A stretch of DNA of 40,443 nt, taken from a virus. Made by a program: the position numbers and the translations under genes. How positions within the stretch are numbered: the stretch's first letter is position 1; every line of letters begins with the position of its first letter. The stretch lies in the IMG/VR virus record IMGVR_UViG_3300028841_000327; one strand, given 5' to 3'. Under the pieces are notes generated by a model. That model was not told the DNA's origin, did no database searches, and was given only the letters and a program-made list of their open reading frames with translations. Below are positions 1,703 to 29,421 of this stretch, piece by piece.

Positions 1703-2164
1703 CTACTTCTTGTCGCGCTCGTTCTTGAACCACGCGAGGCGCTGCCCGACCCTAAGACCCTCAAGTGGCGAGCGCACGGCTATGCAGTTCAGCCGCCACC
1801 CGTGCATGTTGTGGCCTCGCATGGCCTCACGCACCGGTGCTGCGTAGTCCTCACCTGCGAGCACGACCAGTTCGTACGGCCCCGCCTTGAGCATGTGGTT
1901 GATGACAGCGTTCGCAGCGACCTGTCCCCACTGCTGCCGATCCTTGGGGCCCAGCCGCACCTCGTATGGCTCGACGACGGTCTCCGGATCCAGCAGGCCG
2001 AACTTCGCAGACAGGATGAACCACCCGTCGCACTCGGCCGCCCACCTCGACGCGGCCACGAAGAGCGAACCCGTGTAGAGCTGGCGCGCGGGCGCCGCGT
2101 GGTCGAGCTTGCTCTTGCCACACCCCACCAGCACGATCGTTAGAGGGCTCAGCACCGTATCCAT
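1703..2164 (-). CDS. DUF6884-like (YaaA-related) protein
   Basis: IVLVGCGKSK...APARQLYTGSLF...WFILSAKFGLL...EPYE...LAGEDY...PLEGLRVGQRLAW; GAGGAGG RBS. Confidence 0.75.
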   Translation of the reverse strand: MDTVLSPLTIVLVGCGKSKLDHAAPARQLYTGSLFVAASRWAAECDGWFILSAKFGLLDPETVVEPYEVRLGPKDRQQWGQVAANAVINHMLKAGPYELVVLAGEDYAAPVREAMRGHNMHGWRLNCIAVRSPLEGLRVGQRLAWFKNERDKK

Positions 2165-2343
2165 CGTCCACCTCCTCTTAGGTTCTTGCGCAGCCGAAGG
2201 ACGTTATCTACACAATGATCCTCCGTCGGCGAACTGCGCTCGCCGTAACTCGTGGTCATGATTCCATGGCACTCGAGAACCTTCTTTGGATGGATCGCAG
2301 GCTAAGCAGACCTCTGAGGCTCCATGTGCAAGAACATCTTCTC

Positions 2344-3072
2344 CTATGCGTCTGCCAGTTCGCCATCGAACCGTGCCCCGAGCTTGCGAAGGATGTCGCG
2401 AGCGAGGATCGTGCGGTGGCATCGGTTGTGGTCCATGCAGTAGCAGGTCAGCACGCTGCGCTTGCGCGCGAGCAGCTCGTCCCACACCGAACGGTTCGCC
2501 AGGTAGCTCGAGCGCATCTCGTCGAGGTACCCGAGCTGGTACGCCTTCCAGTCCTCGTCGGTGAGCTCACCGCCCTGCTTGCGCTTCTCGAGGAACGGAC
2601 CGAGCAAGTTCCACGACGGCGCGAACACGTCGACGCCGCTCTTGCGGCTGACGTTGTAGACGTCGGGATCGCGACTGCTGATGCGCGCCGTCAGGACCAG
2701 CGGCCGCTCGAACGTCAGCACCTGGCCGAGCTTCCCCACGGAGCGCGCGCGCTCGACGGTGTTGTTCGTGCCGCTGCTGTAGCCGTCCCAGATGGCGTGC
2801 ACGATGTCGGAGTCGAGCACGATGGTCGCGTTGCGCTTGTAGCCAGCCCCCCTGTCGAGGACGCCGTCCCCCTTGGGGTACCAGTTCGCGGGGTGCTCCT
2901 TGAACTCGAGCCCTCGTCGCTTCGCCGCCCGGACCGCCAGCGTGTCGATGCCTGGGGCAGCGCCGCTCACCACGACGTCGCCAACCTCGAGCGAAGCCAC
3001 CAGCTGCTCTACCAGTCGCGCGCCTTCCTTGGTCGGCCATCGGCTGCCGACGACGCCGACCCGACGGCTCAT
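2344..3072 (-). CDS. SLOG-superfamily (YspA/DUF2493-like) domain fused to DUF488-like domain (242 aa)
   Basis: N-term VGVVGSR...VVSGAAPGIDTLA...AGYKRNATIV...AIWDGYSSGT; C-term FAPSW...Y..Y..EM...LTCYC....CHR; start coupled (ATGA) to upstream HTH gene. Confidence 0.7.
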   Translation of the reverse strand: MSRRVGVVGSRWPTKEGARLVEQLVASLEVGDVVVSGAAPGIDTLAVRAAKRRGLEFKEHPANWYPKGDGVLDRGAGYKRNATIVLDSDIVHAIWDGYSSGTNNTVERARSVGKLGQVLTFERPLVLTARISSRDPDVYNVSRKSGVDVFAPSWNLLGPFLEKRKQGGELTDEDWKAYQLGYLDEMRSSYLANRSVWDELLARKRSVLTCYCMDHNRCHRTILARDILRKLGARFDGELADA

Positions 3073-3362
3073 CCTCGAGCCCTCGTCTCCACGGTTGCTC
3101 GAGCCCGCCGCTCCTTCGCGGTGGACCATGAGGTCGCCGGAATCGTTCCGTGCGACCAGGTCTCGATGTTGTCGCGGTGCGCGCTCGAGGGGCGCCTCTG
3201 ACCAGAGGCCCAGTAGTGCACCGCCACGCGCGTGACGGGCAGCTGGTCGGTGCCGAGCGCATCGGCGACGTCCTGCGCGGAGAGTCCCTCCTCGGCCATG
3301 CGCTGCGCGAGCGCGCGACTGCCGTCGGTGTGGACCCGCTTCTTGATCTTGGTCTTGGCCAT
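3069..3362 (-). CDS. Cro/XRE-like HTH DNA-binding protein (97 aa)
   Basis: GLSAQDVADALG...VTRVAVHYWASGQRRPS; TGATG coupling. Confidence 0.7.
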   Translation of the reverse strand: MAKTKIKKRVHTDGSRALAQRMAEEGLSAQDVADALGTDQLPVTRVAVHYWASGQRRPSSAHRDNIETWSHGTIPATSWSTAKERRARATVETRARG

Positions 3363-3970
3363 CAGGACCCGCCAGGCTTGTCTGCTGTGGCGATCGCTGC
3401 GCGCATCCTCTGCTGGATGGCGGGGAGAGCGTGCTCGAACTCGGCTTCGACACAGCGCCGGTAGGTCTCTTCGCTCTTGTACGGCAGCCCACTCACCGAG
3501 TATCCGATCAGCATGTGGAACAGATCCCAGTCGTCTTCGGTGGTCTCGGTGATGCCCTTGGGCGAGCCAAACCACGGCTCGATGTGATCGAGGTCCACCC
3601 GCCCCGCCGCCACGAAGAGGTCACGGATGGCGATGCCTCCGTGGTCGATGAGGTAGCGGACGATGGGGTTCGTGGCTGCCAGCGCGTAGAGCTGCTGCCA
3701 GTCGTCGACCGTGGCCGATGTGACCAGGGCCCGCGCCTTCTCCGCCTGCTGGATCATCTCTGGCCGCGCGTGCTGGCGTTTGCACTCGTGCGGGTTCGGG
3801 TCGCAGCCGCCCGCGACGAGGTGCAGTTCGGTGAGGTGGAGGCGGCCGCAGTCGAGGAGATAGCGGACCAACGGGTTCGCCCGGAACCGGAGGACGTCGC
3901 CGTCCCACACCATCGGTGGGAGCCGATACCATGAGGAGGGCAGTGGGACCGGGGGGATGATGGCGTCCAT
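3362..3970 (-). CDS. Phage hypothetical protein with an internally duplicated domain (202 aa)
   Basis: NPLVRYLLDCG...DDWQQLY and NPIVRYLIDHGG...DDWDLFHMLIGYSVSG; TAATG coupling to mom. Confidence 0.6.
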   Translation of the reverse strand: MDAIIPPVPLPSSWYRLPPMVWDGDVLRFRANPLVRYLLDCGRLHLTELHLVAGGCDPNPHECKRQHARPEMIQQAEKARALVTSATVDDWQQLYALAATNPIVRYLIDHGGIAIRDLFVAAGRVDLDHIEPWFGSPKGITETTEDDWDLFHMLIGYSVSGLPYKSEETYRRCVEAEFEHALPAIQQRMRAAIATADKPGGS

Positions 3971-4755
3971 TAGTGGATCTCCATCTTGGGGTAGGGCTTG
4001 CTGGTGGGCAGGAACCGTCGGTCCCGCTTCGAGAGGGCCCAGACGTACTTGTGGTTGCCCGGGTGTCGGGTGCACCGCGCGGTCGACTCGAGGGCTTGCC
4101 GGAGCCACGCGGCAGAGTCCTCGGTGCTGGTCAGGGCCGGGACGCCGAAGCGCTCGAGCTGCGCCGCCGCGTACCGCCACCCGCGCTCACGGTTCCGGAT
4201 CTTGGAGGCGGCCCTCGCCGAGAACACGGTCCCATCGGGGAGCATGTGCAGGGTCCTGCGGCTCCCCCGCCCGACGTAGACGGCGTTGAAGGCCTGGTAG
4301 ATGGTCCCGACGTGCCCACCGAAGACGACGCTTCCTGAGGCGTCCTGGCGGGGGAGCGGGTCCGAGAAGGACACTACCCCGACCACCTCCCCACGGAGCT
4401 GCTCGAACGCGCGCGCGAGGAACCACGTCTCCCCGTTGGACGGGACGTCGTCCAGCAAGACGAAGCGCCCGAGCTCCACCGAGTCGCCCGGGTCCCCCGG
4501 CAGCGGCTTCAGGACGCCGTTGGACATCGGCTGGGAGAACACGGCGACGCCGACGAGGTCCCCGCCGCGGTAGAGCCCGAAGCGAAACCGGGCCGCCGGG
4601 TAGGACCCCGAGTAGTGATGATCGAGGACGAACCGCTTGGCGACGGTGTCGCTGGCGATGGACGCCACCTCGTAGTCAGAGGTGCGGATGGTCTCGCCGA
4701 GGGGGCGGTAGGAGTCGCGGCGATCCTTCCACCGCTGGACCTGGTCGACGATCAC
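3970..4755 (-). CDS. mom: Mom-family adenine-modifying GNAT-fold enzyme (261 aa, GTG start)
   Basis: FVLDHHYS...FGLY...LVGVAVF...VELGRFVLLDDVPSNGETWFLARAF...VVSFSDP...GHVGTIYQAFNAVYVG. Confidence 0.8.
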   Translation of the reverse strand: MIVDQVQRWKDRRDSYRPLGETIRTSDYEVASIASDTVAKRFVLDHHYSGSYPAARFRFGLYRGGDLVGVAVFSQPMSNGVLKPLPGDPGDSVELGRFVLLDDVPSNGETWFLARAFEQLRGEVVGVVSFSDPLPRQDASGSVVFGGHVGTIYQAFNAVYVGRGSRRTLHMLPDGTVFSARAASKIRNRERGWRYAAAQLERFGVPALTSTEDSAAWLRQALESTARCTRHPGNHKYVWALSKRDRRFLPTSKPYPKMEIH

Positions 4756-6551: not shown

Positions 6552-6848
6552 TCAGCCAGGGACCTGGGCGACCTCTTCTGGGGTCGCGAGCCTGGTGTGG
6601 ATCTCGGGGAGGAACGGTCCCCCGTTGGGGTTCCACCATTCGACTTGGGTCACCACCAAGAAGAGCGGCTTCGTGATGTCCGCGGGGATGGGGGAAGGGT
6701 AGCCGGCTGGCCGGACGTAGTGCTTCTGGTGTGGGAAGATGTGGAGCATCTCTCCTACGCGAGGGATGAGGCCGTGGCAGAAGGAGAGTCCGATCACGTC
6801 CTCTCGGCCGGGCACGGTGACGGATACCTCGACGACGTTGCTGAGCAT
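6552..6848 (-). CDS. Hypothetical protein (98 aa)
   Basis: TGATG coupling to exonuclease gene. Confidence 0.55.
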   Translation of the reverse strand: MLSNVVEVSVTVPGREDVIGLSFCHGLIPRVGEMLHIFPHQKHYVRPAGYPSPIPADITKPLFLVVTQVEWWNPNGGPFLPEIHTRLATPEEVAQVPG

Positions 6849-7885
6849 CAGCCACCGCCCTTCGGCTCGAACGACGGCGCGGGGAGCGCGCGGATGTGCG
6901 CGGCCGCGTTGTGGACGACACCTCGCCCCGATGCGCCGCTGGCGACGTTCTCGCCGCTGGCGATCTCGCGCTTGGCCTGCTCGATGGCCTTGGCGCACCG
7001 CTCGCGCTCGCCCATCGCGATCTCCATCCACGAGGTGGGCGGCGCGGGCGCGTCGACCTCGGGTGCCACGGGCTTGGCCGCTTCCTCCACGGGGGGCGAC
7101 TTCCATCCGAGCTGCCGGTGATCCCAGCAGAGCGGGGGCATGTGCATCACGCCGTTGCCGGCAGACTCGGAGCAGCCGGGGCAGTAGGCCATCCCTTCTG
7201 CGTCGAGCGGCGGGTCGAGCGTCGGGTCCGGGAGGTTGGCGAGGAACCTCGCCATGTCGTTGGCCGAGAGGTCTCGAACGTTCGGCTGGTCGAGACGCAG
7301 CCGGGTGCGCAGCGCCAAGCTGCGAATCGCATGGGCGCAGCGCTCGCGCTCTCGGAACGCGACGGCCTGCCAGCTGGTCGGGGTCTGCGCCTCGAACCAC
7401 GCGAGGAGTCCGTTGTGGTAGCGACGGATCTGCCGAGCGTCGGAGACGGCCTCGTGCTTCGCCAGCTCGCGTTCCTCGAACTGCTTGAGGTCGCCGGTGA
7501 AGCCGACGTTCTTGGCGAACTGCTTGACATCGTTGCAGTAGTGGGGGAACGACTTCGGCAGGTCGACCATGCGGCCCCACAGCTGGCAGAACAGGACCCA
7601 GTCGTAGGCGCTGTAGTAGCCGTAGAACTCGATGCGGTCGTCCTCGGCGAGGAACGCTTCGATGGCGTCGCGGGCGTGGGCTCGAGTCACCCACGTGTTG
7701 GTGGGCGGGAGGTGCGGCAGCACGTTCTCGACCAGCCAGTGGCTGGCGTGGGCGACGACCCACCCGTCCGAGAAGGTGAACGAGAGGCTCGCGCCGTCGT
7801 CGCGCACGAGTCCAAGGGAGATGAGCTCGATGGGGTAGTCGGGCCCCCGCTCGTTGAACTCGGTGTCGAGGTAGTACCGGGCCAT
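6848..7885 (-). CDS. DEDDh 3'-5' exonuclease, Rv2179c/RNase AS-like, with C-terminal extension (345 aa)
   Basis: YYLDTEF...ELISLGLV...WLVENVLPHL...YYSAYDWVLFCQLWGRMVDLP...DVKQ...HEAVSDAR; extension has two ERERCA motifs. Confidence 0.8.
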   Translation of the reverse strand: MARYYLDTEFNERGPDYPIELISLGLVRDDGASLSFTFSDGWVVAHASHWLVENVLPHLPPTNTWVTRAHARDAIEAFLAEDDRIEFYGYYSAYDWVLFCQLWGRMVDLPKSFPHYCNDVKQFAKNVGFTGDLKQFEERELAKHEAVSDARQIRRYHNGLLAWFEAQTPTSWQAVAFRERERCAHAIRSLALRTRLRLDQPNVRDLSANDMARFLANLPDPTLDPPLDAEGMAYCPGCSESAGNGVMHMPPLCWDHRQLGWKSPPVEEAAKPVAPEVDAPAPPTSWMEIAMGERERCAKAIEQAKREIASGENVASGASGRGVVHNAAAHIRALPAPSFEPKGGG

Positions 7886-10517: not shown

Positions 10518-13500
10518 TCAGCCCGTGAGCCTCACGCTCGAGTCCTTCGTCGCGCCGAGCCTTTTCGGACGCGAGGCGCCACCTTCGAGCGCCTCGTTGT
10601 CCGTGAGCATGGCGTAGAGCTGCTTGCCGATGGAGAGGCCGACGAGGTAGCTGTCCTCGGCGACCCCGGCGGCTTGGAGGGCGGACTCGGGGTCGAGGCC
10701 GTCCGTCGCGACCGAGACGGCGACCTTCCGCATGAGGAGGTCGAGCGCCTGGGTCTGGATGGTGTTCGCGTACTTGGGGACGTAGATGGACGTCGGCTTG
10801 GTCTGCCCGATGCGGTCGACCCGGCCGATGGCCTGGCGGAACGTCAGCGGGTTGCACGCCGGGTTCTGCATCCACACCTCGGTCGAGAAGTGGACCAGGT
10901 TGTTGAGCCCCGTCTGCACCGTCACCGGGTTGGCCACGAGCACCCGCGACTTCTTGGCGATGACCTCCTTGTTGATCCAGTCCTGCCGCTTGGCGGTCGA
11001 GACCTTGTCGGCGTGGAGGATGGGGACCCGCTCGCCGATGCGTTCGGCGATGATCCGCGCGAGCCGGGGCATCAGCTTGGTGTGCCAGCCGAAGACCAGC
11101 ACGTTGCGCCCCGCCTCGAGCTCGGCCTCCACGAGGTCGAGCATCCACTGCTCCTTCGGCAGGATTGTGTTCGCGGGCAGCAGGGGCACCGAGGCCACGA
11201 TCCCACCGTCCTTCACGGTCGGCGGGTACTCGATGGCGAACTGGTCGCCGTGGTCGTTGCCGACGTCGATGGTCGCCCGATCGAGGTAGGAGGGCAGCTC
11301 GGCCAGCTGCCCCCACAGCTTGCCCGCCAAGTCCTTCTTGAAGCGGTCGGAGCGGATCTGGGCGAGCAGCTTGTTGCGCAGCGCCTGGTAGTGCTGGAAC
11401 AGTTCCCCCTCCGCCTTGAGGTCGACGTTGCGCTGCTCGCACTTGGGCAGCTCGATCGAGAGGTCGGACTTGTGGAGGGTGACCGACATGGGGAGCAGGT
11501 GGGTCATGAGGAAGAGCGGCAGCACCCCGGGGGCGTTGCCGAGGATCCGGTGGTTGCGCTCGACGCGGTCGGTCACGGAGCCGAAGGCGATGATCTCCCC
11601 GTCCTGCTTCTCCTCGACGAGGCGCTTGCGGAAGCCGTAGCGCTCGACGAACAGCGACCGGTGCTCCCGGAGGAACTCCCCACGGAAGCGGCGGCTGATG
11701 GCCCAGAAGTTGGAGAACAAGCTCTCGGCGTAGCCGTTCATGATGGTGCCGGTCATCAGGATGGTCGGCAGCCCCATGTTGGTCAGGCGGTGGGCCGAGC
11801 GCTCTTGGGCGCTCCCGTCGGTCGCGTACTCGTGCCCCTCGTCGACGATGAGGAAGTCGAAGAGCTTGCGGTGACGGCGGGAGATGAGCCGGGCGAGCGG
11901 CAGGCGGACGGGGTCGGCGACGCCCTGGTAGAGCGGCTCGTCGCAGACCGGGGAGTGCTTGAAGCGCGCGAGGGTGCAGGCGGCACGGAACGCCCGGAGC
12001 GCCATGGCTGCGGTGCCGGGGGCGTCGTCCTCGATCTTGGTCACCCCGCCCCGGTGCGAGGGGCTGAGGGTGAACGACCAGTCGGGCAGCTTGTTGCCCT
12101 TGTCGACCTCGGCGAGGTGGTCGCGGAGCTTCGCGACGGGGTTGCCGTAGCTGTCGTACCAGCGGCCGGCCATCTGGACCCTCTTCTCGGCGACCAGCTT
12201 CTCGAAGACCACGAGCGCTTGGTCGCGCTCGGCCCCCGGGGGGAGCAGCAGCAGGCACTGGGCGGCGGGGCCCGTGTCCATGCCGTACTCCTTGAGCCCG
12301 AGGTGGTGGATGGTCTCGACGATCAGCCGAGGGTTGGCGAGCGCGAGGAGCGACAGGCAGAGGGCCCGCACCGCCTTCTTCGTCACCTCGGGGATCGTGG
12401 ACTCCACCTCGTTGCGCAGGAGCCGGGTGCACTCGAAGATGATGTGGTGGAAGGGGCTGGACCGGTCGGCGACGATCGGCAGGCCCGACCAGCCCGTGGG
12501 CACGGTCCAAGCGGGCTTGCGCTTCCGCTTCTCGTTGCGCATCAGGTAGGCGTCGCCCCGGGTCTGGGCCATGCGGCCGTCGAGCAGCGCCGCGACGTTG
12601 GGATCCGCCGGGTAGTGGGGCTGCAACCGGATCGCGAGCTCCACGACCGACTCGGCGAGCCGGTCCTTGGGGTGCCGCGTCTGCGCCTTGCAGCGGGCCC
12701 GCGTCTTGGCGAAGTCGCCCCCGTGGAGGGGAGCCCCGCACTTGGGGCACCCGCTGCCCTGGACACCCACGTAGGCGTGCCCGAGCTTGGCGGCCTCACG
12801 GGAGAGCAGGCCGACCACGGGGCGCTCCGGGGCGGCCTTGACGGCCTTGGCGAGGCGCTCGAGGTCGAGCACGTCTCGGAGGACGTGGACGTCGACATCG
12901 GGGGCGATGGCCTCGAACTGTTCCTGCCACGAGGCGAGGAGGTGCGGGGGGCAGAGGATGAGGAGCCGCTTGGCGCCGAGGCTCCGGGCGGCGACGACCG
13001 ACACGGTGCTCTTGCCCGATCCGATCTCGCCGAGCAGGATGGCGGCCCGGTCGGGCTGTGCGAGCAGGCGCACGAGGGCGCGGGCGGCGTGGGCCTGGGC
13101 GGCGAAGAGCTTGCGGGGGGAGGGGTGGAGGGTGACGGCGTTCGCGTGGTAGCGCGGGTCGTAGAGCACCGGGCACTGCTGCTCCATGACGCGCATCAGC
13201 GAGGTCGAGTAGTGGGACAGGAGGTCGGCCGCGGTCATCTCGCAGACGGCGACCTTGCCCGGGGTGATGTCGGTGCCGGCCTTGAGGGTGTGGTAGGCGT
13301 AGGTCGAGAGGTCGAGGACGGTGGTGACCATCTTCGGCTGCTGCACCTGCACCTCGCCGACGACCTCGCCGTCCCTGTTGACCTTCTCCTCGATGGTCCG
13401 GTATTCGCGGTCGAAGACACCCTTGACCAAGAGCGGGGGGAGGTGGGAGCCCGGGTTGGGCTCGACGCGCGCCCCGTTGAAGATCCCGGAGGCCATCCCG

Positions 13501-14396
13501 GCCGCGATGTGGGCGGGGCGGGGCGGCACGGCGACGGGATAGACCCGGCGCATGAGGTCGACGGGGGCGACGCTCGGGACGAAGGCCTCGAGATCCTGGG
13601 CGGCCCCGGCCTTGTTGGTGATCGACCAGGGGCGGAGCTTGGCGAGGAGCGCCTTGGTGTCGACGTGGTCGATCTCGAGGTCAGAACTCCTGCTGTAGAG
13701 CGAGGACGGGCTCAAGGCAGGGACCGCGGTGCGCGTGCGGCACGCATCGCCGAGGACGGGAAGGGAAGCGGGGTCCAACGCCCAGGTCCGCACGAGGAGG
13801 GCGACCGAGCTGTCGGGCGCGAGCGGCTCGTCGACGACGCGCTTGGCGACGAGGACGACCTGACGGTAGGCCTTGAAGTCGTCGTCCGGGAACCGAAAGC
13901 ACCGGAGGTCGGTGTAGCTGCGGGCGAGGGTCTCGGCCGAGGCGGCGAGCGCGTAGTGGGGGACGACGAAGACGAGGACGCCGCCGCTGGCGAGCGAGTC
14001 GGTGAAGCGGGCGAGGAACCGTTCCTCGAGCCGCTCGTGCTCCCGGTCGAGGTCGTAGGGCGGGTTCAGGTACAGGAGCGAGGCGAAGGGCTTGGTCCAG
14101 CGGGCGCGGAAGGCGTCGGCGTGGTGCGCGTTGCCCACGGTGCGCGTGAGTGCGGTGAAGCGCGACTCCTCCATCTCGATGGCGACCCACTTGGGGGCCT
14201 TGGCGCCGAGGCGCTTGGTGAGCTCGACGAGGGCGGCGCCGTCCCCGGCGCACGGGTCGAACGCCACGACGCGGGGGCGAGAGTAGTTCTCGGCCTCCCG
14301 TTCCTCGGGCGGCACGAGCAGCTGCGCGATGAGGGGGATCAGGTGCGGCGGCGTCGGGTAGTACCCGGCGACGGCGACGCTCTCGAGACGAGCCAT
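10518..14396 (-). CDS. Amino (N6A/N4C) DNA methyltransferase (DUF6094-like) fused to SF2 SNF2/DEAH-type helicase (1292 aa)
   Basis: MTase: AGYYPTP, FDPCAGDG, LYLNPPYD; helicase: GEIGSGKS, ILCPPHL, LIVDEGHE, MTGT, TGLNNL, QAIGRVDRIGQ; GAAAGG RBS. Confidence 0.85.
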   Translation of the reverse strand: MARLESVAVAGYYPTPPHLIPLIAQLLVPPEEREAENYSRPRVVAFDPCAGDGAALVELTKRLGAKAPKWVAIEMEESRFTALTRTVGNAHHADAFRARWTKPFASLLYLNPPYDLDREHERLEERFLARFTDSLASGGVLVFVVPHYALAASAETLARSYTDLRCFRFPDDDFKAYRQVVLVAKRVVDEPLAPDSSVALLVRTWALDPASLPVLGDACRTRTAVPALSPSSLYSRSSDLEIDHVDTKALLAKLRPWSITNKAGAAQDLEAFVPSVAPVDLMRRVYPVAVPPRPAHIAAGMASGIFNGARVEPNPGSHLPPLLVKGVFDREYRTIEEKVNRDGEVVGEVQVQQPKMVTTVLDLSTYAYHTLKAGTDITPGKVAVCEMTAADLLSHYSTSLMRVMEQQCPVLYDPRYHANAVTLHPSPRKLFAAQAHAARALVRLLAQPDRAAILLGEIGSGKSTVSVVAARSLGAKRLLILCPPHLLASWQEQFEAIAPDVDVHVLRDVLDLERLAKAVKAAPERPVVGLLSREAAKLGHAYVGVQGSGCPKCGAPLHGGDFAKTRARCKAQTRHPKDRLAESVVELAIRLQPHYPADPNVAALLDGRMAQTRGDAYLMRNEKRKRKPAWTVPTGWSGLPIVADRSSPFHHIIFECTRLLRNEVESTIPEVTKKAVRALCLSLLALANPRLIVETIHHLGLKEYGMDTGPAAQCLLLLPPGAERDQALVVFEKLVAEKRVQMAGRWYDSYGNPVAKLRDHLAEVDKGNKLPDWSFTLSPSHRGGVTKIEDDAPGTAAMALRAFRAACTLARFKHSPVCDEPLYQGVADPVRLPLARLISRRHRKLFDFLIVDEGHEYATDGSAQERSAHRLTNMGLPTILMTGTIMNGYAESLFSNFWAISRRFRGEFLREHRSLFVERYGFRKRLVEEKQDGEIIAFGSVTDRVERNHRILGNAPGVLPLFLMTHLLPMSVTLHKSDLSIELPKCEQRNVDLKAEGELFQHYQALRNKLLAQIRSDRFKKDLAGKLWGQLAELPSYLDRATIDVGNDHGDQFAIEYPPTVKDGGIVASVPLLPANTILPKEQWMLDLVEAELEAGRNVLVFGWHTKLMPRLARIIAERIGERVPILHADKVSTAKRQDWINKEVIAKKSRVLVANPVTVQTGLNNLVHFSTEVWMQNPACNPLTFRQAIGRVDRIGQTKPTSIYVPKYANTIQTQALDLLMRKVAVSVATDGLDPESALQAAGVAEDSYLVGLSIGKQLYAMLTDNEALEGGASRPKRLGATKDSSVRLTG

Positions 14397-22253: not shown

Positions 22254-22732
22254 GAGGCCTCCTGCGGTTGGGCCGTGGGGGTCGCCCCGGCGTCTGCCAT
22301 TCGCTTCCGAGCGCCCGCCATGAGCGCCTCGAACACTTCCGGCTCGAGCACCTCCTGCGCCTCCGTGATGAAGTGGTGGCGCAGGTCGGCGGCCGCCAGG
22401 TGACGCGGGTGGGTGCGTGTGGCCTGGATGGCCTGCGAGAACTCGCGTTCCATCGCGAGCTTGACGCCCGCGGTCCGCGACAGAGCGGTCCGGCAGTGCG
22501 TGAGCAGGTCGTTGGGCTGGCCGCCCTCGCCCGCCGCGAAGCGAGCTGATGCCTTGCTGACGAGCGCGGACAGCCGCTTGGTCGCCCCGGACAGACCTTG
22601 GATGTGCGCCTCGAACGCCAAGCGATCGTGGCTCGGCTGCGTGATCTGCATCCGGTGGAGCTCGTGGAGCGCGGACTCGAGCTGACGAGTCAGAAGCTCC
22701 GTGGGCGGCTCGACGACACGCAGGCGGCTCAT
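22235..22732 (-). CDS. Helical hypothetical protein (165 aa)
   Basis: ATGA coupling to methyltransferase stop. Confidence 0.55.
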   Translation of the reverse strand: MSRLRVVEPPTELLTRQLESALHELHRMQITQPSHDRLAFEAHIQGLSGATKRLSALVSKASARFAAGEGGQPNDLLTHCRTALSRTAGVKLAMEREFSQAIQATRTHPRHLAAADLRHHFITEAQEVLEPEVFEALMAGARKRMADAGATPTAQPQEASCPTSR

Positions 22733-24735
22733 TGCAGGGCGGCCTCCTCGGCCGCTGCCCCGGAGATGATCCACTCGGACTCGCGCTCCTCGTCCGCGGA
22801 GAGGAAGCGGGCCCAGCCAGGCGCGATGGCGTCGGGCGCGTCCACCCAGACGCCGGTGTCCCCGTTGAGGCTCCACGCGCCCGTGGCACCTCCCACGAGG
22901 GTGACCAGCATCCGCGTGGCGATGGCCTTGGCGGTGGGGGGCGGCACGGCGTTGCCGATGCGTTCCCGCCACGCCGAGGACGACTTGCCGTGGAAGCACA
23001 GCGGCTTGCCGTCGACGTGCGAGGGCATGCCTTGCAGCATGGCCAGCTCGTAGGTGGTGAGCGGGCGGTGCCAGCACCCGTCCTCGGCGAGGATGATGGG
23101 CACGACCTCGGGGGCGTCCTTCGGGTTCGCCGGAGGAACGAACACCTGATGGTCGGGGACCCGGGGGTCGGCCACGGAGTAGGCGCCCTGGCCGGGGTGG
23201 GAGCCCGCGGCGACGGTGGGGCTGGGCTCGCGCCAGTGCAGGACCCCGTAGCCGTGGTCGTAGGCCTTGGAGACGCACAGGATGGGACGCCCTTCCTCGA
23301 TCCGAGGGTCGGCGACCGCCGCGGTGGCGTTGTCGATCTTCATGTGGCCGGTGATCGTGCGCGCGGCCTCGCGCCACCCGAGGAGCCCGTAGGCCCCCGC
23401 GCGCGGCTCGCACCCGAGGCGCACGTCGGCGACCGCGAACCGGCCGGTGCTGATGCCCGCCCCGCCGGTGACGGTGGCCGAAGGCTCGTCCCACCCGTTG
23501 ACGCCGTAGACGCCATGGAAGGCAGCGTCCACGCGCACGTCGGCGACCGCGAACCGTCCGGTGCTGATGTTCGCCCGACCGGTGACGGTGTCCGAGGGCT
23601 CGTCCCACCCGTTGACGCCGTACACGCCGTTGAAGGCGCCATCGAGCGTGAGGCGGGGGTCGGCGACGCTGACGGCTCCGCTGCTCGGAGCAGGGGAGGA
23701 CGTGACCGTGGGGGCAGCCTGGTCCCACCCGGTGACCCGGTCGACGTTGCCGAAGGCGTTGTCCTTCCCGCCGACCAAGAGGTCCCTGCTCGCGCCATCG
23801 AACTCGAGCCGCGGGTCGGCGATGTTGTTGACCGCGTTCGAGCCGGAGCCCGCGATGGTGGCGGCGGGCTCGTTCCAGCTCTCGATGCGGTGTCGACGGT
23901 GAAGCGTTCGGCGCGCCTGACCTTCGGCGAGGACGCCCGGGATGTCGCGCCAATCGCCCCCGGCGGGGATGAGCGCGAGGCGCACCCAGTTCAGCCAGGA
24001 GATGGTGGGCAGCCGGTGCATCGGCCCCCCTGCGGCGTCCTCGGGCATCGGCAGCTCGCGGAGCACGGCGCCGCACGGACGGACCTTGAGCTTGGGGGGC
24101 TCGTACAGGAGCGCGGGGGCACGCTTCGGGAGGCGAGCGACGAGCAGGTAGCGCTGGCGGTGCTGGGCCAGAGCCCCGATCTCCCCGCAGTCGTGGAACC
24201 CGTCGCTGAACACGTAGCCCTTGGCGCGCAGGACGGAGCGCAGCTCGCGCACCATGTCCGCGGCGCGCTTGCGCAGGCGGGGGACGTTCTCGAGCAGGAT
24301 GAGGGCGGGCCCTTCCGACCAGGCCTCGAACATGAGCTTGGTCCAGACGACCGCAAGGCGGTTCATGTCCTTGTACTTCTTCGTCTTGGCCTTCTCGGCC
24401 GAGAGGAGCCCCGACGCGCCCTTGCAGGGCGGGCTCATGAACACGACGTCGGGGGCCTTGTCCCCGGCGAACGCGCGGAGCATCTTGGCGGTGAGCTTGG
24501 GCACCTTGCGGCGGACCCAGTGCGGGGGCGGGGCGTCGCCGACGTAGGCGTTCAGCGCCGGGCTCTTGGTGAGGTACTCGAAGTCGTGGCACCCCGCGGT
24601 GTCACCATCGATGCCACCCACAGAGCGGAAGCTCGCGGTGACCCCGCAGACGGTCACCTGGGCGTTGAGGAAGCCGAGCGCCCCGGCGCCGAGACCGCAG
24701 AAAGGGAACAGCGCCGTGAAAACATGGTGGTTCAT
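22729..24735 (-). CDS. C5 DNA cytosine methyltransferase with repeat-expanded variable region (668 aa)
   Basis: Motifs I FCGLG, IV SPPCKG, VI LLENV, VIII QHRQR, IX RPLTTYELAMLQG, X RIGNAVPP; several ...W.EP..TV...VADPR repeats between VIII and IX. Confidence 0.9.
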   Translation of the reverse strand: MNHHVFTALFPFCGLGAGALGFLNAQVTVCGVTASFRSVGGIDGDTAGCHDFEYLTKSPALNAYVGDAPPPHWVRRKVPKLTAKMLRAFAGDKAPDVVFMSPPCKGASGLLSAEKAKTKKYKDMNRLAVVWTKLMFEAWSEGPALILLENVPRLRKRAADMVRELRSVLRAKGYVFSDGFHDCGEIGALAQHRQRYLLVARLPKRAPALLYEPPKLKVRPCGAVLRELPMPEDAAGGPMHRLPTISWLNWVRLALIPAGGDWRDIPGVLAEGQARRTLHRRHRIESWNEPAATIAGSGSNAVNNIADPRLEFDGASRDLLVGGKDNAFGNVDRVTGWDQAAPTVTSSPAPSSGAVSVADPRLTLDGAFNGVYGVNGWDEPSDTVTGRANISTGRFAVADVRVDAAFHGVYGVNGWDEPSATVTGGAGISTGRFAVADVRLGCEPRAGAYGLLGWREAARTITGHMKIDNATAAVADPRIEEGRPILCVSKAYDHGYGVLHWREPSPTVAAGSHPGQGAYSVADPRVPDHQVFVPPANPKDAPEVVPIILAEDGCWHRPLTTYELAMLQGMPSHVDGKPLCFHGKSSSAWRERIGNAVPPPTAKAIATRMLVTLVGGATGAWSLNGDTGVWVDAPDAIAPGWARFLSADEERESEWIISGAAAEEAALQ
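23421..23637. repeat. Near-identical 114-bp-period (38-codon) tandem duplication inside the C5 methyltransferase
   Basis: 23421-23523 vs 23535-23637, each encoding AFxGVYGVNGWDEPSxTVTGxAxISTGRFAVADV. Confidence 0.85.
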
Positions 24736-26452: not shown

Positions 26453-26821
26453 TCAGATCCGGCCGAGGGCCCGACGGATCTTGATGCCGAGTTCGGGCGA
26501 GGCCTTTGCGGTGGCGTCGAGCACGGTCTCCAGTTCCGCCGTTGTGAGGCCGAGGAAGGCCTGCATGCGGACGTGGATCGCGTTGAACTCGGCCATGGTC
26601 GGCCGGAGCATGGGGTGGTCGTTGCTCACGGCGGTGATGTGCAGCAAGTCGGGGCTCCGCCGCCCGTCGGCGTTCACGCCGATGACCGCAGTGGACCCGT
26701 CGGTGAAGCACTCGACGATGTAGTGCGCGTATGGCCGAGACTGCCACCCCTCGGCGCAGCGGACGCAGACGAAGTGGCGTTCGATGGCGGCGCCGCAGTT
26801 GGCGCACTTGCGCGGGCTCAC
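26453..26821 (-). CDS. Zn-finger hypothetical protein (122 aa, GTG start)
   Basis: CANC...CVRC; GTGA coupling. Confidence 0.5.
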   Translation of the reverse strand: MSPRKCANCGAAIERHFVCVRCAEGWQSRPYAHYIVECFTDGSTAVIGVNADGRRSPDLLHITAVSNDHPMLRPTMAEFNAIHVRMQAFLGLTTAELETVLDATAKASPELGIKIRRALGRI

Positions 26822-27477
26822 GAGCCGCCTCGCTTGACGAGCCTGTGGCGCGTCCCCTTCGTGGTGGACCCCGCGTGTGTCACGAGGAGCGTGTCGTCGC
26901 CGATCTGTTCGACCTGCGGCGCTATCGCGAGCGAGGGAGCCTCCTTCGGCCAGTCCCTCTTCGTGCGCACCTGGATGGTGCCGTCTCCGTTGGAGATGGC
27001 GCCCTCGTCGACAGTGCTTCGGAGGTTCGGGCGCTTGGAGAACGGATCGGTGGTCTCCTCGACGTAGACGATGACCGTCTGGTCGTGGAGGCGGTAGAGC
27101 TTGCGCGGATCGATCCACAGGTCCTTGGCGCGATCCTTCGGGGCCAGGAAGATGTCGGGCTTCCCATCCCAGCCGGGGTGGCTCCCGAGTTCGCCGACCC
27201 CGAGGTCGACGATGTCGCCGACCTTCGGGCGTTGCGGGACGATCTTCAGGAAGGCGTCGCCGAGGTGGCCGCTGTCACGGACCTCGACGACCTCGACGGT
27301 GAGCCGCACGCGCTTGCCCTCCAAGCGCTTGAGGAGCGCCTTGTCGTACTTGACGACAGCGGAGCCTGCCTTGGGGTTGAAGGGCGTGTCCGAGAGATGG
27401 ATCGAGCCGTAGCGCGAAGTGCGCCGCTCGGTGCCGTCCCACCCGAAGATGCCCTTGGCGAGAATCTGCTTGCTCAT
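26818..27477 (-). CDS. Hypothetical protein (219 aa)
   Basis: GAAGGAG RBS, ATGA coupling. Confidence 0.6.
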   Translation of the reverse strand: MSKQILAKGIFGWDGTERRTSRYGSIHLSDTPFNPKAGSAVVKYDKALLKRLEGKRVRLTVEVVEVRDSGHLGDAFLKIVPQRPKVGDIVDLGVGELGSHPGWDGKPDIFLAPKDRAKDLWIDPRKLYRLHDQTVIVYVEETTDPFSKRPNLRSTVDEGAISNGDGTIQVRTKRDWPKEAPSLAIAPQVEQIGDDTLLVTHAGSTTKGTRHRLVKRGGS

Positions 27478-27644
27478 GCGGTCTCCTTCGTGGCGGCGCG
27501 CCGCCGATGGGTCTTGAGGGTGAGCGCCTCGGCGGCGTCCGCCTCGGCCTTGAGCGCCGCGAGCCACCGCGGGTCGTCGTACGCGATGGACTCGTCCTTG
27601 AGCAGGGCGTCGACCTCGAGCCTTGCCTTCTGGAGTGCGGTCAC
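27474..27644 (-). CDS. Hypothetical protein (56 aa)
   Basis: Coupled start/stop at both ends. Confidence 0.45.
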   Translation of the reverse strand: MTALQKARLEVDALLKDESIAYDDPRWLAALKAEADAAEALTLKTHRRRAATKETA

Positions 27645-29026
27645 GAGTCCCCCTTCGCCAGCGCCGCGGGGCGTTCGGCGAGGAGCGCTCGCGCCTCCTT
27701 CTCGGCGCCATCGCAAAGGCGCTGGTGCCCGAGGGCGGCCTTCGCGGGCGTGCTCTCGTCGAGCATGACGATCGCGTCGACGATCGCGAGGCCGTTCGGC
27801 TCTCCGCGGAGCGCGCGGCGGCGCCACACGTCGGCGACCCGTTCGCGAGCCAGCGCGACCTCGCCCGGGGTGCAGGCCCCCGGCACGGGGACGTGGAAGA
27901 TCGGGAAGTGGTGCTGGAGACGCTGGACCCGAACGACGGCCGAGGGCCGGTCGTGCTCGAACGTGGCCACGACGTTCGCCGGACTGGTCGGGAGCCGCGC
28001 CTCGGCGCGGTAGCTGGTCATCTCGCCCTGACGCAGCAGTTGAAACGCGCTGTCGAGCGCGGGGCGGCGGAACTCGTCGAGCTGGTCGAGGAGCAGAACC
28101 CCCCGGTGGGCCAAGGAGACCTCGCCGAGGCGCATCGCGCGCGTCGCGAGGTTCCCGATGAGGCCCTGGTCGCTGACGGTGTGGTGGGGCGCCCGGAAGG
28201 GCCTGGACGAGACCGCACCATTCTCGAGCCCCATCGCCGCCGAGTGCACGGAGGTGACCTCAGTCCTCTCCTGCACCGAGAGAGGGGGCAGGAGGTGGAT
28301 CAGGCGCCGCGCGCAGAAGACACTCATCCGTCCGCTGAGCAAGAGGCCTGCCCCGGAGGCGGCCGCGATCTCGAGCACCCGGAGGGTCCGCGGGCTGAGG
28401 TGGGCGTGACCGTCGAACGACGAGTCGTCGTCGGGCATCGTCAGGGGCGGGGGCGGCGGGAACATGAAGCCCTCGGGGATCCCCTCGTGACGGCGCAGCT
28501 CGGTCAGGAGGTCCTGCACCGAGGCGACGTCGAGGAACCGAGACCCCGTCGGCTCCGCAGACCAGGCCTCCGCGGCGTTTCCGCGGGGGATGATCCAGAG
28601 GGCCCGGACCGCCGACCCGAGGGGGATGTTGTGCATCCGGCAGTAGGCGCCGCGGACGGGCTGGATGGCCCCGCTGAGGCTGACCGATCCGAACGAAGCG
28701 ATCTTCTCGAGGGCCGGCCCGATGCTGGTGGTCGGGTTGGGGATCTTGCCGAGGTGGGCGAGTACGCCGATCAGGACCGGGAGGTCGAGGCCGTGTCCGC
28801 CGCCATCGGTGGAGAGCGTGGGGATGGAGATCCCGATGCGCTCCGGGTCGATCTCCAGGCAGTGGAGGACGGAGCGAATGCGGATGCGCAGCTCCCCGGC
28901 CGCGTTCTCCGAGAGGCCGGTGATCTGCATCGAGGGGCCGTTCTCGGGGGTGAAGATCAGGATGGGGACGAGCTTGGCCTGGATGCCAACGAGCTCGACG
29001 CCGTACACACGGGTGGTGGTGGTCAT
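27641..29026 (-). CDS. ComM/YifB (Mg-chelatase-related AAA+) homologue with degenerate ATPase motifs (461 aa)
   Basis: ITGL...ELRIRIRS...GLDLPVLIGVL...GSVSLSGAIQPVRG...IIPRGN; LEIAAASG, LPPLS, RPFRAPHHTVS, GEVSLAHRGVLLLD; P-loop replaced by SGRMSVF, Walker B DE to DQ. Confidence 0.8.
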   Translation of the reverse strand: MTTTTRVYGVELVGIQAKLVPILIFTPENGPSMQITGLSENAAGELRIRIRSVLHCLEIDPERIGISIPTLSTDGGGHGLDLPVLIGVLAHLGKIPNPTTSIGPALEKIASFGSVSLSGAIQPVRGAYCRMHNIPLGSAVRALWIIPRGNAAEAWSAEPTGSRFLDVASVQDLLTELRRHEGIPEGFMFPPPPPLTMPDDDSSFDGHAHLSPRTLRVLEIAAASGAGLLLSGRMSVFCARRLIHLLPPLSVQERTEVTSVHSAAMGLENGAVSSRPFRAPHHTVSDQGLIGNLATRAMRLGEVSLAHRGVLLLDQLDEFRRPALDSAFQLLRQGEMTSYRAEARLPTSPANVVATFEHDRPSAVVRVQRLQHHFPIFHVPVPGACTPGEVALARERVADVWRRRALRGEPNGLAIVDAIVMLDESTPAKAALGHQRLCDGAEKEARALLAERPAALAKGDS

Positions 29027-29082
29027 GGTGCTCTTTCTGCTGCCCTTGCCTGGGCAACGTCAGGGATGGTGGTCGTGGTCGG

Positions 29083-29421
29083 TCACAGCTGAGCGAGGAG
29101 CGCCTCCAGGGTGGGGCGCAGGGTCGTGTCCTCCGCGAGGTACTCGTCGGGGTCTTCGTCGAGGTAGAACGTGGCGGCGTCCCGCGCGAGGCCTCGGATG
29201 GCCTCGGGCAGCACGCTGGGTGCCTTCATGCCGTTGCACCAGTCGATCGCCTCTTGGCACGTGGCGATGGCCTCGACATCGGCGGGGTCGTCGGCGCCCG
29301 GGTCCCTGACGAACCCGTCCGACCGGTAGTGGGAGTCGGCGAGACGCCAGTACATGTAGCTGTCCAAGGCCTCCGCGAGGGCGGGGGCCTCGTTCGTGGT
29401 CAGGGTGATGGGCTTGGGCAT
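29083..29421 (-). CDS. Acidic hypothetical protein (112 aa)
   Basis: AGGAGG RBS. Confidence 0.6.
   Translation of the reverse strand: MPKPITLTTNEAPALAEALDSYMYWRLADSHYRSDGFVRDPGADDPADVEAIATCQEAIDWCNGMKAPSVLPEAIRGLARDAATFYLDEDPDEYLAEDTTLRPTLEALLAQL

Follow-up and report, generated by a model that had tools for sequence, protein, structure and literature searches.

In natural transformation of Gram-negative bacteria, branch migration is driven by the product of comM, a gene that is also a favourite insertion target of mobile elements. To our knowledge, no protein antagonist, mimic or non-catalytic paralogue of ComM has been described. The question raised by the locus considered here is what a large phage-like element does with a ComM/YifB homologue that has kept its frame and lost its motor. 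The window, that is, the whole stretch of DNA analysed, is the viral record IMGVR_UViG_3300028841_000327 of 40,443 nt. The original prediction, made from the letters of the window, saw selective loss of catalytic residues in an open frame and offered two readings, a dead subunit poisoning the hexamers of the host or a repurposed scaffold. The gene, its parts and its closest surroundings are as follows.

27641–29026, minus strand: gene of the ATPase-dead ComM/YifB homologue (P0002), 461 aa (Pfam, NCBIfam, PDB sequence search, codon GC, AlphaFold/Foldseek/VIA)
28517–29026, minus strand: Lon-protease-like N domain, aa 1–170 (PF13541, VIA-align to 8rxs, per-domain identity)
28304–28345, minus strand: remnant of Walker A, aa 228–241, LLLSGRMSVFCARR, with a three-residue deletion and without Gly-Lys-Thr (alignment)
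28181–28204, minus strand: family signature RPFRAPHH, kept, aa 275–282 (alignment)
28070–28126, minus strand: Walker B strand GEVSLAHRGVLLLDQLDEF, aa 301–319, Asp kept, catalytic Glu replaced by Gln (alignment)
28034–28048, minus strand: sensor-3 position AFQLL, aa 327–331, Arg (R316 of Lp ComM) replaced by Phe328 (alignment)
27884–28018, minus strand: pre-sensor-1 hairpin and sensor-1 strand, aa 337–381, without the Asn, NPCPCG/CxC and the LLDRID Arg (alignment)
27641–27883, minus strand: C-terminal (lid) domain, helical and shortened, with Asp417 in place of the VARTIADL-helix Arg (Pfam, alignment, AlphaFold, VIA)
29031–29038, minus strand: weak Shine-Dalgarno-like sequence AGAAAGAG, 4 nt 5' of the ATG
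27474–27644, minus strand: 56-aa ORF, its GTG start sharing a GTGA with the stop of the ComM-like gene
26818–27477, minus strand: 219-aa protein of an uncharacterised, widespread family, with an ATGA overlap with the stop of the 56-aa ORF and an AAGGAG ribosome-binding site

The gene comprises 461 codons, starting from the ATG at 29026 (ORF list and translation). Its GC content at the three codon positions is 0.70/0.51/0.92, the window as a whole having 68% GC, and this identifies the minus strand as the coding one. The plus-strand ORF at 27623–29092 (489 aa) was considered and rejected as a shadow of the ComM-like gene, since the codon-position GC favours the minus frame.

In Pfam, P0002 matches Mg_chelatase (PF01078, E 4.1e-28), covering just positions 12–150 of the 207 in the profile, and the Lon-like ChlI N domain (PF13541, E 1.4e-7). 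The PDB sequence search yields ComM 8rxd with E 4.5e-25. The NCBIfam scores are below the curated cut-offs, 116.5 bits versus 362.4 for TIGR00368 and 77.9 bits versus 530 for NF007365. Mg_chelatase_C (PF13335) has no Pfam match in P0002, and about 100 residues are missing in the alignment; the structural alignment reaches model residue 454. The AlphaFold model built from an alignment of 149 sequences has pLDDT 91.1 and pTM 0.91, and was used instead of the one built from 12 sequences, which had pLDDT 59. The top Foldseek match of the model is ComM (E 2e-27, TM 0.66), and VIA-align superimposes it with Legionella ComM 8rxd_A at Z 28.4, with 424 residues aligned (model residues 2–454), and with the ComM Lon ring 8rxs at Z 19.7 (rmsd 2.9, 177 residues). 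The model keeps the three-tier layout of ComM, namely the Lon-like ring domain, the AAA+ shell with both pore hairpins and the helical lid. Given these Foldseek and VIA-align matches, the ComM architecture survives in the modelled P0002 except for the zinc finger and a part of the lid, and the intact 461-aa frame with an N-terminal Lon-like domain, as originally described, is confirmed and lies on the minus strand. Neither P0002 nor the neighbouring proteins have matches in PADLOC or PHROG, the ESM Atlas search with P0002 retrieved generic ComM/YifB clusters only, and no fused or longer forms of ATPase-dead ComM were found. P0002 is a ComM/YifB homologue that falls outside the family in the functional sense of an active helicase, being a non-catalytic relative of known proteins.

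P0002 has a small clade of relatives. In a search of 5.8 billion proteins these were P0003 (82% identity), P0004 (66%), P0005 (61%), P0006 (60%) and a fragment, P0007, the next matches being canonical YifB proteins with at most 41% identity. An exhaustive search of representatives added a sister, P0009, which matches over the full length at 39% identity, also lacks the P-loop, and is joined to the clade with 98% support in the FastTree phylogeny. The best canonical sequence matches to P0002 are the Myxococcota ComMs. The clade itself is not nested within the named Myxococcota ComMs but forms a long branch, and in the Lon domain it shares only about 30% identity with them. Recent capture of the gene from comM of a myxococcotal host was considered and is disfavoured by this placement, FastTree with long branches being weak evidence. 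Scans of genome contigs and IMG/VR gave no related loci. The tblastn search against plasmids and phages retrieved canonical YifB only, at no more than 36% identity, and the phage records inspected proved to be bacterial comM-dprA flanks or a 5' fragment of comM.

Two loci show comM in the company of mobile elements. The complete genome of the Evtepia phage NatCom_42594 (PV036445.1, locus L002, 4205–5104) contains a 5' part of comM, encoding 299 aa with Walker A intact; this piece stops at SLAHHGV, just before Walker B, and resembles the portion borne by a comM-integrating element. The metagenome scan for loci related to the window produced L001 only, which is an unrelated Tn7-like insertion: TnsA-like and TnsB-like genes adjoin a short comM fragment (JACCDN010144004.1, 5480–8327), comM being the insertion target.

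What remains of the ATP site? The Walker A region of P0002 reads LLLSGRM---SVFCARR versus LLSGAPGSGKTMMAKR in ComM (aa 228–241), so that the original reading of this motif as reduced to SGRMSVF holds, and GK[ST] is absent in all six clade members as well as in P0009. The Walker B strand ends in LLLDQ, with D314 kept and the catalytic Glu replaced by Q315, again as first read. This position is DQ in P0002, P0003, P0004 and P0007, DE in P0005 and P0006, and DA in P0009. The family blocks reported as kept are indeed there, RPFRAPHH at 275–282 and GEVSLAH.GVL, here GEVSLAHRGVLLLD, at 301–314; R278, P280 and H281 of the former are invariant across 149 homologues. The sensor-1 Asn and the C4 zinc motif (NPCPCG...CxC), likewise reported as absent, are replaced by ATFEHD, and one of the four cysteines is left, at 385. 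The LLDRID Arg was said to have given way to LQHH. The Arg is gone, but the aligned segment reads FPIFHVPV, LQHH lying just before it in a region where the alignment is loose.

Further losses are those of the sensor-3 Arg (R316 in Legionella pneumophila ComM, Lp ComM), which became Phe328, and of the Arg of the C-terminal VARTIADL helix, which became Asp417, both replacements being invariant in the clade. The roles of the respective ComM residues, sensor-3 R316 and arginine finger R463, are taken from the ComM cryo-EM paper (PMC11612176); we infer that the VARTIADL-helix Arg is the R463 of that paper from its position, not from alignment to the solved chain. Hence, judging by the alignment, all five ATP-site elements checked (P-loop, Walker B Glu, sensor-1 Asn, sensor-3 Arg and finger Arg) are lost in P0002. 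The ATP-site losses are common to the four full-length relatives (60–82% identity) and P0009, whereas the Walker B residue varies, as P0005 and P0006 have DE. A regained Ser-Lys dyad of the Lon type was also considered and rejected, as the site, inspected by eye, reads GLDLP like in other ComMs.

An open frame with a dead active site could be a pseudogene in neutral decay that has happened to remain open, as stop codons are scarce in DNA of high GC content. At 68% GC, the window has many long ORFs that arise by chance, and even the antisense frame is open for 489 codons. However, the codon-position GC of the gene is that of a coding gene, and the model is a confident one (pLDDT 91). All indels among the full-length clade members are in frame in the alignment, and the 39% sister carries only in-frame indels too. 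In a neutral simulation of point substitutions alone on P0002's own gene, at divergences well short of the P0009 split, the runs still free of stops made 31% at 87% amino acid identity, 3.3% at 69% and 3.0% at 63%. Moreover, the conservation is uneven. In the deepest clade pairs the Lon-like domain has 79% identity and the AAA+ core 68%, and the figure for the linker, hairpin and C-terminal parts is 42–47% (42–45% for the C-terminal ones). Frameshifts and neutral decay in the homologues, by which the original prediction would have recognised a pseudogene, were not seen, and we consider this explanation very improbable.

The distribution of constraint differs from that in the family. The Lon-like domain is the most conserved part of the clade, with 114 of 170 positions invariant, and it contains clade-specific invariant loops, GKIPNPTTS.GPA.E (aa 93–108) and NA.EAWS. 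Canonical ComMs of the Myxococcota type at a similar overall divergence show the opposite pattern, 48% identity in the Lon domain and 66–78% in the core. In the clade the constraint has thus moved away from the ATPase core and onto the Lon-like domain, which inverts the canonical pattern. Together, the exclusively in-frame indels, the rarity of stop-free runs in the neutral simulation and the strongly uneven conservation argue that the ComM-like gene is kept under selection and that the selected function is probably centred on the Lon-like domain. The alignment with the ComM/YifB family, suggested as a check at the outset, demonstrates homology, the motif losses and their sharing within the clade. 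The losses common to the clade, the in-frame indels and the non-neutral conservation bear out the selective loss of catalytic residues in an open frame. The repurposed scaffold, one of the two initial readings, also fits, as a selected, catalytically dead ComM/YifB derivative, since the gene resides on a phage-like or mobile element.

Such a protein could bind DNA or another protein. The pI of the clade is 6.5–7.1 versus 8.6–9.5 in canonical ComMs. Of the lysines by which the Lon pore of Lp ComM contacts DNA, only K64 has an invariant equivalent in the clade (R63), whereas the equivalents of K43 and K46 vary (G/T/K/R/K and R/R/R/S/W, respectively), and the hairpin Arg (R328 in Lp ComM) is not conserved. 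Both pore hairpins are kept, and the helix-2 insert, longer by two residues, contains an additional conserved Arg, R296. Since the pI is near neutral and two of the three Lon-pore contact positions, as well as the hairpin Arg, are not conserved, it seems likelier that P0002 binds protein rather than DNA. Still, the retention of the pore hairpins, R63 and R296 makes ATP-independent DNA binding possible.

The window is tightly packed: frame analysis shows about 57 genes, of which nearly all lie on the minus strand and many have ATGA/GTGA overlaps. Those with recognisable products are listed below.

101–1321: Rep-like initiator (HTH_36, RP-C; PHROG replication initiators)
1703–2134: DUF6884 protein
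2344–3000: SLOG and DUF488-N3a protein
3970–4755: Mom-family protein
6848–7885: exonuclease-like protein (PF16473 at 24.1 bits, under its cut-off of 27 bits)
10518–14396: 1292-aa protein, DUF6094 methyltransferase and SNF2-type helicase
22729–24735: C5 DNA methyltransferase, 668–696 aa
36034–36435, minus strand: 133-aa protein, weakly similar to the CbeA type IV antitoxin family at a sub-threshold E of 0.0015

The DNA-modification genes are dense within one run (1703–4755, 10518–14396 and 22729–24735). This gene set, replication and DNA modification, would suit an early region of a phage or a leading region of a plasmid. The immediate neighbours of the ComM-like gene have no matches in Pfam, PHROGs or PADLOC. 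The GTGA overlap of its stop with the GTG start of the 56-aa ORF suggests that the two are translationally coupled. The 219-aa family numbers 160 homologues, of which some come from contigs as long as 659 kb, and has no annotation in Pfam, PHROG or the ESM Atlas, where the search with the neighbour itself also retrieved nothing; the IMG/VR scans with two neighbour proteins revealed no related loci. Some members of this family come from contigs of 13,116 and 32,229 bp, and these are the sizes of the contigs bearing P0006 and P0005, respectively. From this agreement, the 219-aa gene and the dead-ComM gene probably travel together in these two relatives.

The loss of the P-loop is not restricted to the clade. 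About 26 of the 150 library representatives scoring best with the clade profile lack G.GK[ST], the list being biased toward degenerate sequences by the query profile, and many of these also lack the sensor-3 and finger arginines. The loss has occurred in at least seven independent events if well-supported FastTree branches are counted, and in about twenty by parsimony. There are at least two other multi-member groups without the P-loop, P0231/P0244 and P0165/P0198/P0208, in the latter of which P0198 retains the lysine of G.GK and lacks the Ser/Thr. As many of the P-loop-less sequences are singletons from short assemblies, some of them may be errors or pseudogenes. Pfam shows no informative domain fusions in these other relatives. 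With about 26 such sequences among the best 150 and at least seven independent losses, pseudo-ComMs (proteins P0122–P0266) may be a recurrent, hitherto undescribed theme. A chromosomal YifB with partial degeneration is P0063 from Sorangium sp. So ce590 (546 aa). Its LLDR Arg is changed to Cys and the VARTIADL helix is replaced by an unrelated Arg/Gly-rich tail, so this copy may be frameshifted or decaying.

The explanation that we prefer, and hold to be probable, is that the gene encodes a selected, non-catalytic ComM/YifB derivative, a pseudo-ATPase that acts by stoichiometric binding. As the elements for ATP binding and hydrolysis are lost, P0002 would be a binder rather than a motor: it would not translocate DNA, and would engage its target probably by the Lon-like domain with the clade-specific invariant loops. 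It may act early after the element has entered the cell, since the gene is about 10 kb into a 39-kb run on one strand. In the likeliest sub-mechanism, P0002 would sequester a host protein or a DNA intermediate of the ComM/RadA recombination pathway and would not join the host hexamers. The proposal that it antagonises, or acts as a decoy for, a host recombination factor or intermediate is itself a tentative one, with well under even chances, and somewhat less than half of that figure belongs to the mixed-hexamer model considered next.

In the mixed-hexamer model, put forward in the original prediction, dead subunits enter hexamers of the host ComM/YifB and poison branch migration, and thereby transformation or recombinational curing of the element is blocked. 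The retained ComM fold with the Lon-like ring domain, the best canonical matches being myxococcotal and the Glu-to-Gln change in Walker B, a classic trap mutation, are all consistent with it. Antagonising ComM would also be profitable for mobile elements, as they are known to target comM by insertion (review PMC12378983; L001). However, ComM depends on ATP for DNA binding and hexamerisation, forming hexamers mainly when ATP and DNA are present; with the P-loop mutation K224A it has no activity in vivo and is a poor binder of ssDNA (Nero et al.; PMC11612176). The Lon–Lon interface of ComM is small and weak (PMC11612176). P0002 lacks the ATP interface in both its cis half (P-loop) and its trans half (sensor-3 and finger Arg), so it can neither work as a motor nor use the canonical ATP-bridged interface on either side, and the mixed hexamer is structurally disfavoured. 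The low identity to any canonical ComM, in the Lon domain particularly, and the position of the clade on a long branch away from the named myxococcotal ComMs also argue against it, and neither the review (PMC12378983) nor Nero et al. describe a ComM dominant negative. Moreover, blocking of recombinational curing presupposes a resident element, of which the window shows no sign. We therefore regard this model as quite unlikely. A different possibility, still unlikely but less so, is that P0002 serves the DNA machinery of the element itself, be it replication, recombination or DNA modification, as a non-catalytic partner or adaptor, stacking on or regulating an active AAA+ protein or helicase. 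The run does include the Rep-like initiator, the SNF2-type methyltransferase-helicase, the exonuclease-like protein and DNA-modifying enzymes; the ComM-like gene is coupled by overlap to the genes downstream, and the 219-aa neighbour seems to accompany it on two related contigs. On the other hand, the methyltransferase-helicase is the sole P-loop protein of the window and is encoded 13 kb away, no active ComM is seen in the window, and the 219-aa family is much broader than the dead-ComM clade and hence is not a dedicated partner.

The pseudo-ATPase acting by binding may have a more specific and bolder form. An element-encoded ComM mimic might sequester a partner or cap a DNA intermediate, and in this way disarm branch migration of the ComM/RadA type in the host or a defence relying on this step; we give this rather long odds, between those of the adaptor and of the mixed hexamer. 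If true, it would be the first protein-level inhibitor of the branch-migration motor ComM and one case of a wider unrecognised class, as P-loop loss recurs among divergent metagenomic ComM-like proteins. In any case, a conserved motor-less ComM on a large phage-like element is a candidate for a new way to interfere with host recombination or, alternatively, for a non-motor role of the Lon-plus-AAA+ scaffold that would be new. A review from 2025 on how competence and mobile elements come into conflict covers insertional disruption of comM, homologues of Rok and RocR, and nucleases, and contains neither an element-encoded ComM mimic nor the word "dominant" (PMC12378983). A full-text search found no literature joining pseudo-ATPase, AAA+ and phage, and in papers mentioning both YifB and phage, yifB is an integration site or a branch of the AAA+ classification.

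Among known systems, the closest is ComM/YifB itself (TIGR00368, NF007365; Legionella pneumophila, PDB 8RXD/8RXT/8RXS; Vibrio cholerae), with the same three-domain architecture and fold (Z 28.4). P0002 shares with it the Lon-like N domain, RPFRAPHH, the Walker B strand, the helix-2 insert and the pre-sensor-1 hairpins, and differs in having no P-loop, catalytic Glu, sensor-1 Asn, C4 zinc motif, sensor-3 Arg or finger Arg. It also differs in the shortened lid, in a neutral rather than basic pI, and in that the strongest constraint is on the Lon domain instead of the ATPase core.

In Mg-chelatase, the active ring formed by BchI has a degenerate AAA+ ring, that of BchD, as its partner. The BchD/ChlD AAA+ module, which is from the same AAA+ clade as ComM, is like P0002 a degenerate helix-2-insert AAA+ domain that has been retained. 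However, P0002 has no vWA/integrin-I domain and no identified active partner, and the likeness is in logic only. Finally, the mobile elements known to counteract transformation, by comM insertions, the Rok homologue of pLS20 or the Legionella sRNA RocRp, act by disruption or repression of expression (PMC12378983). P0002 would resemble RokLS20 in being a host competence or recombination factor of which an element has its own copy.
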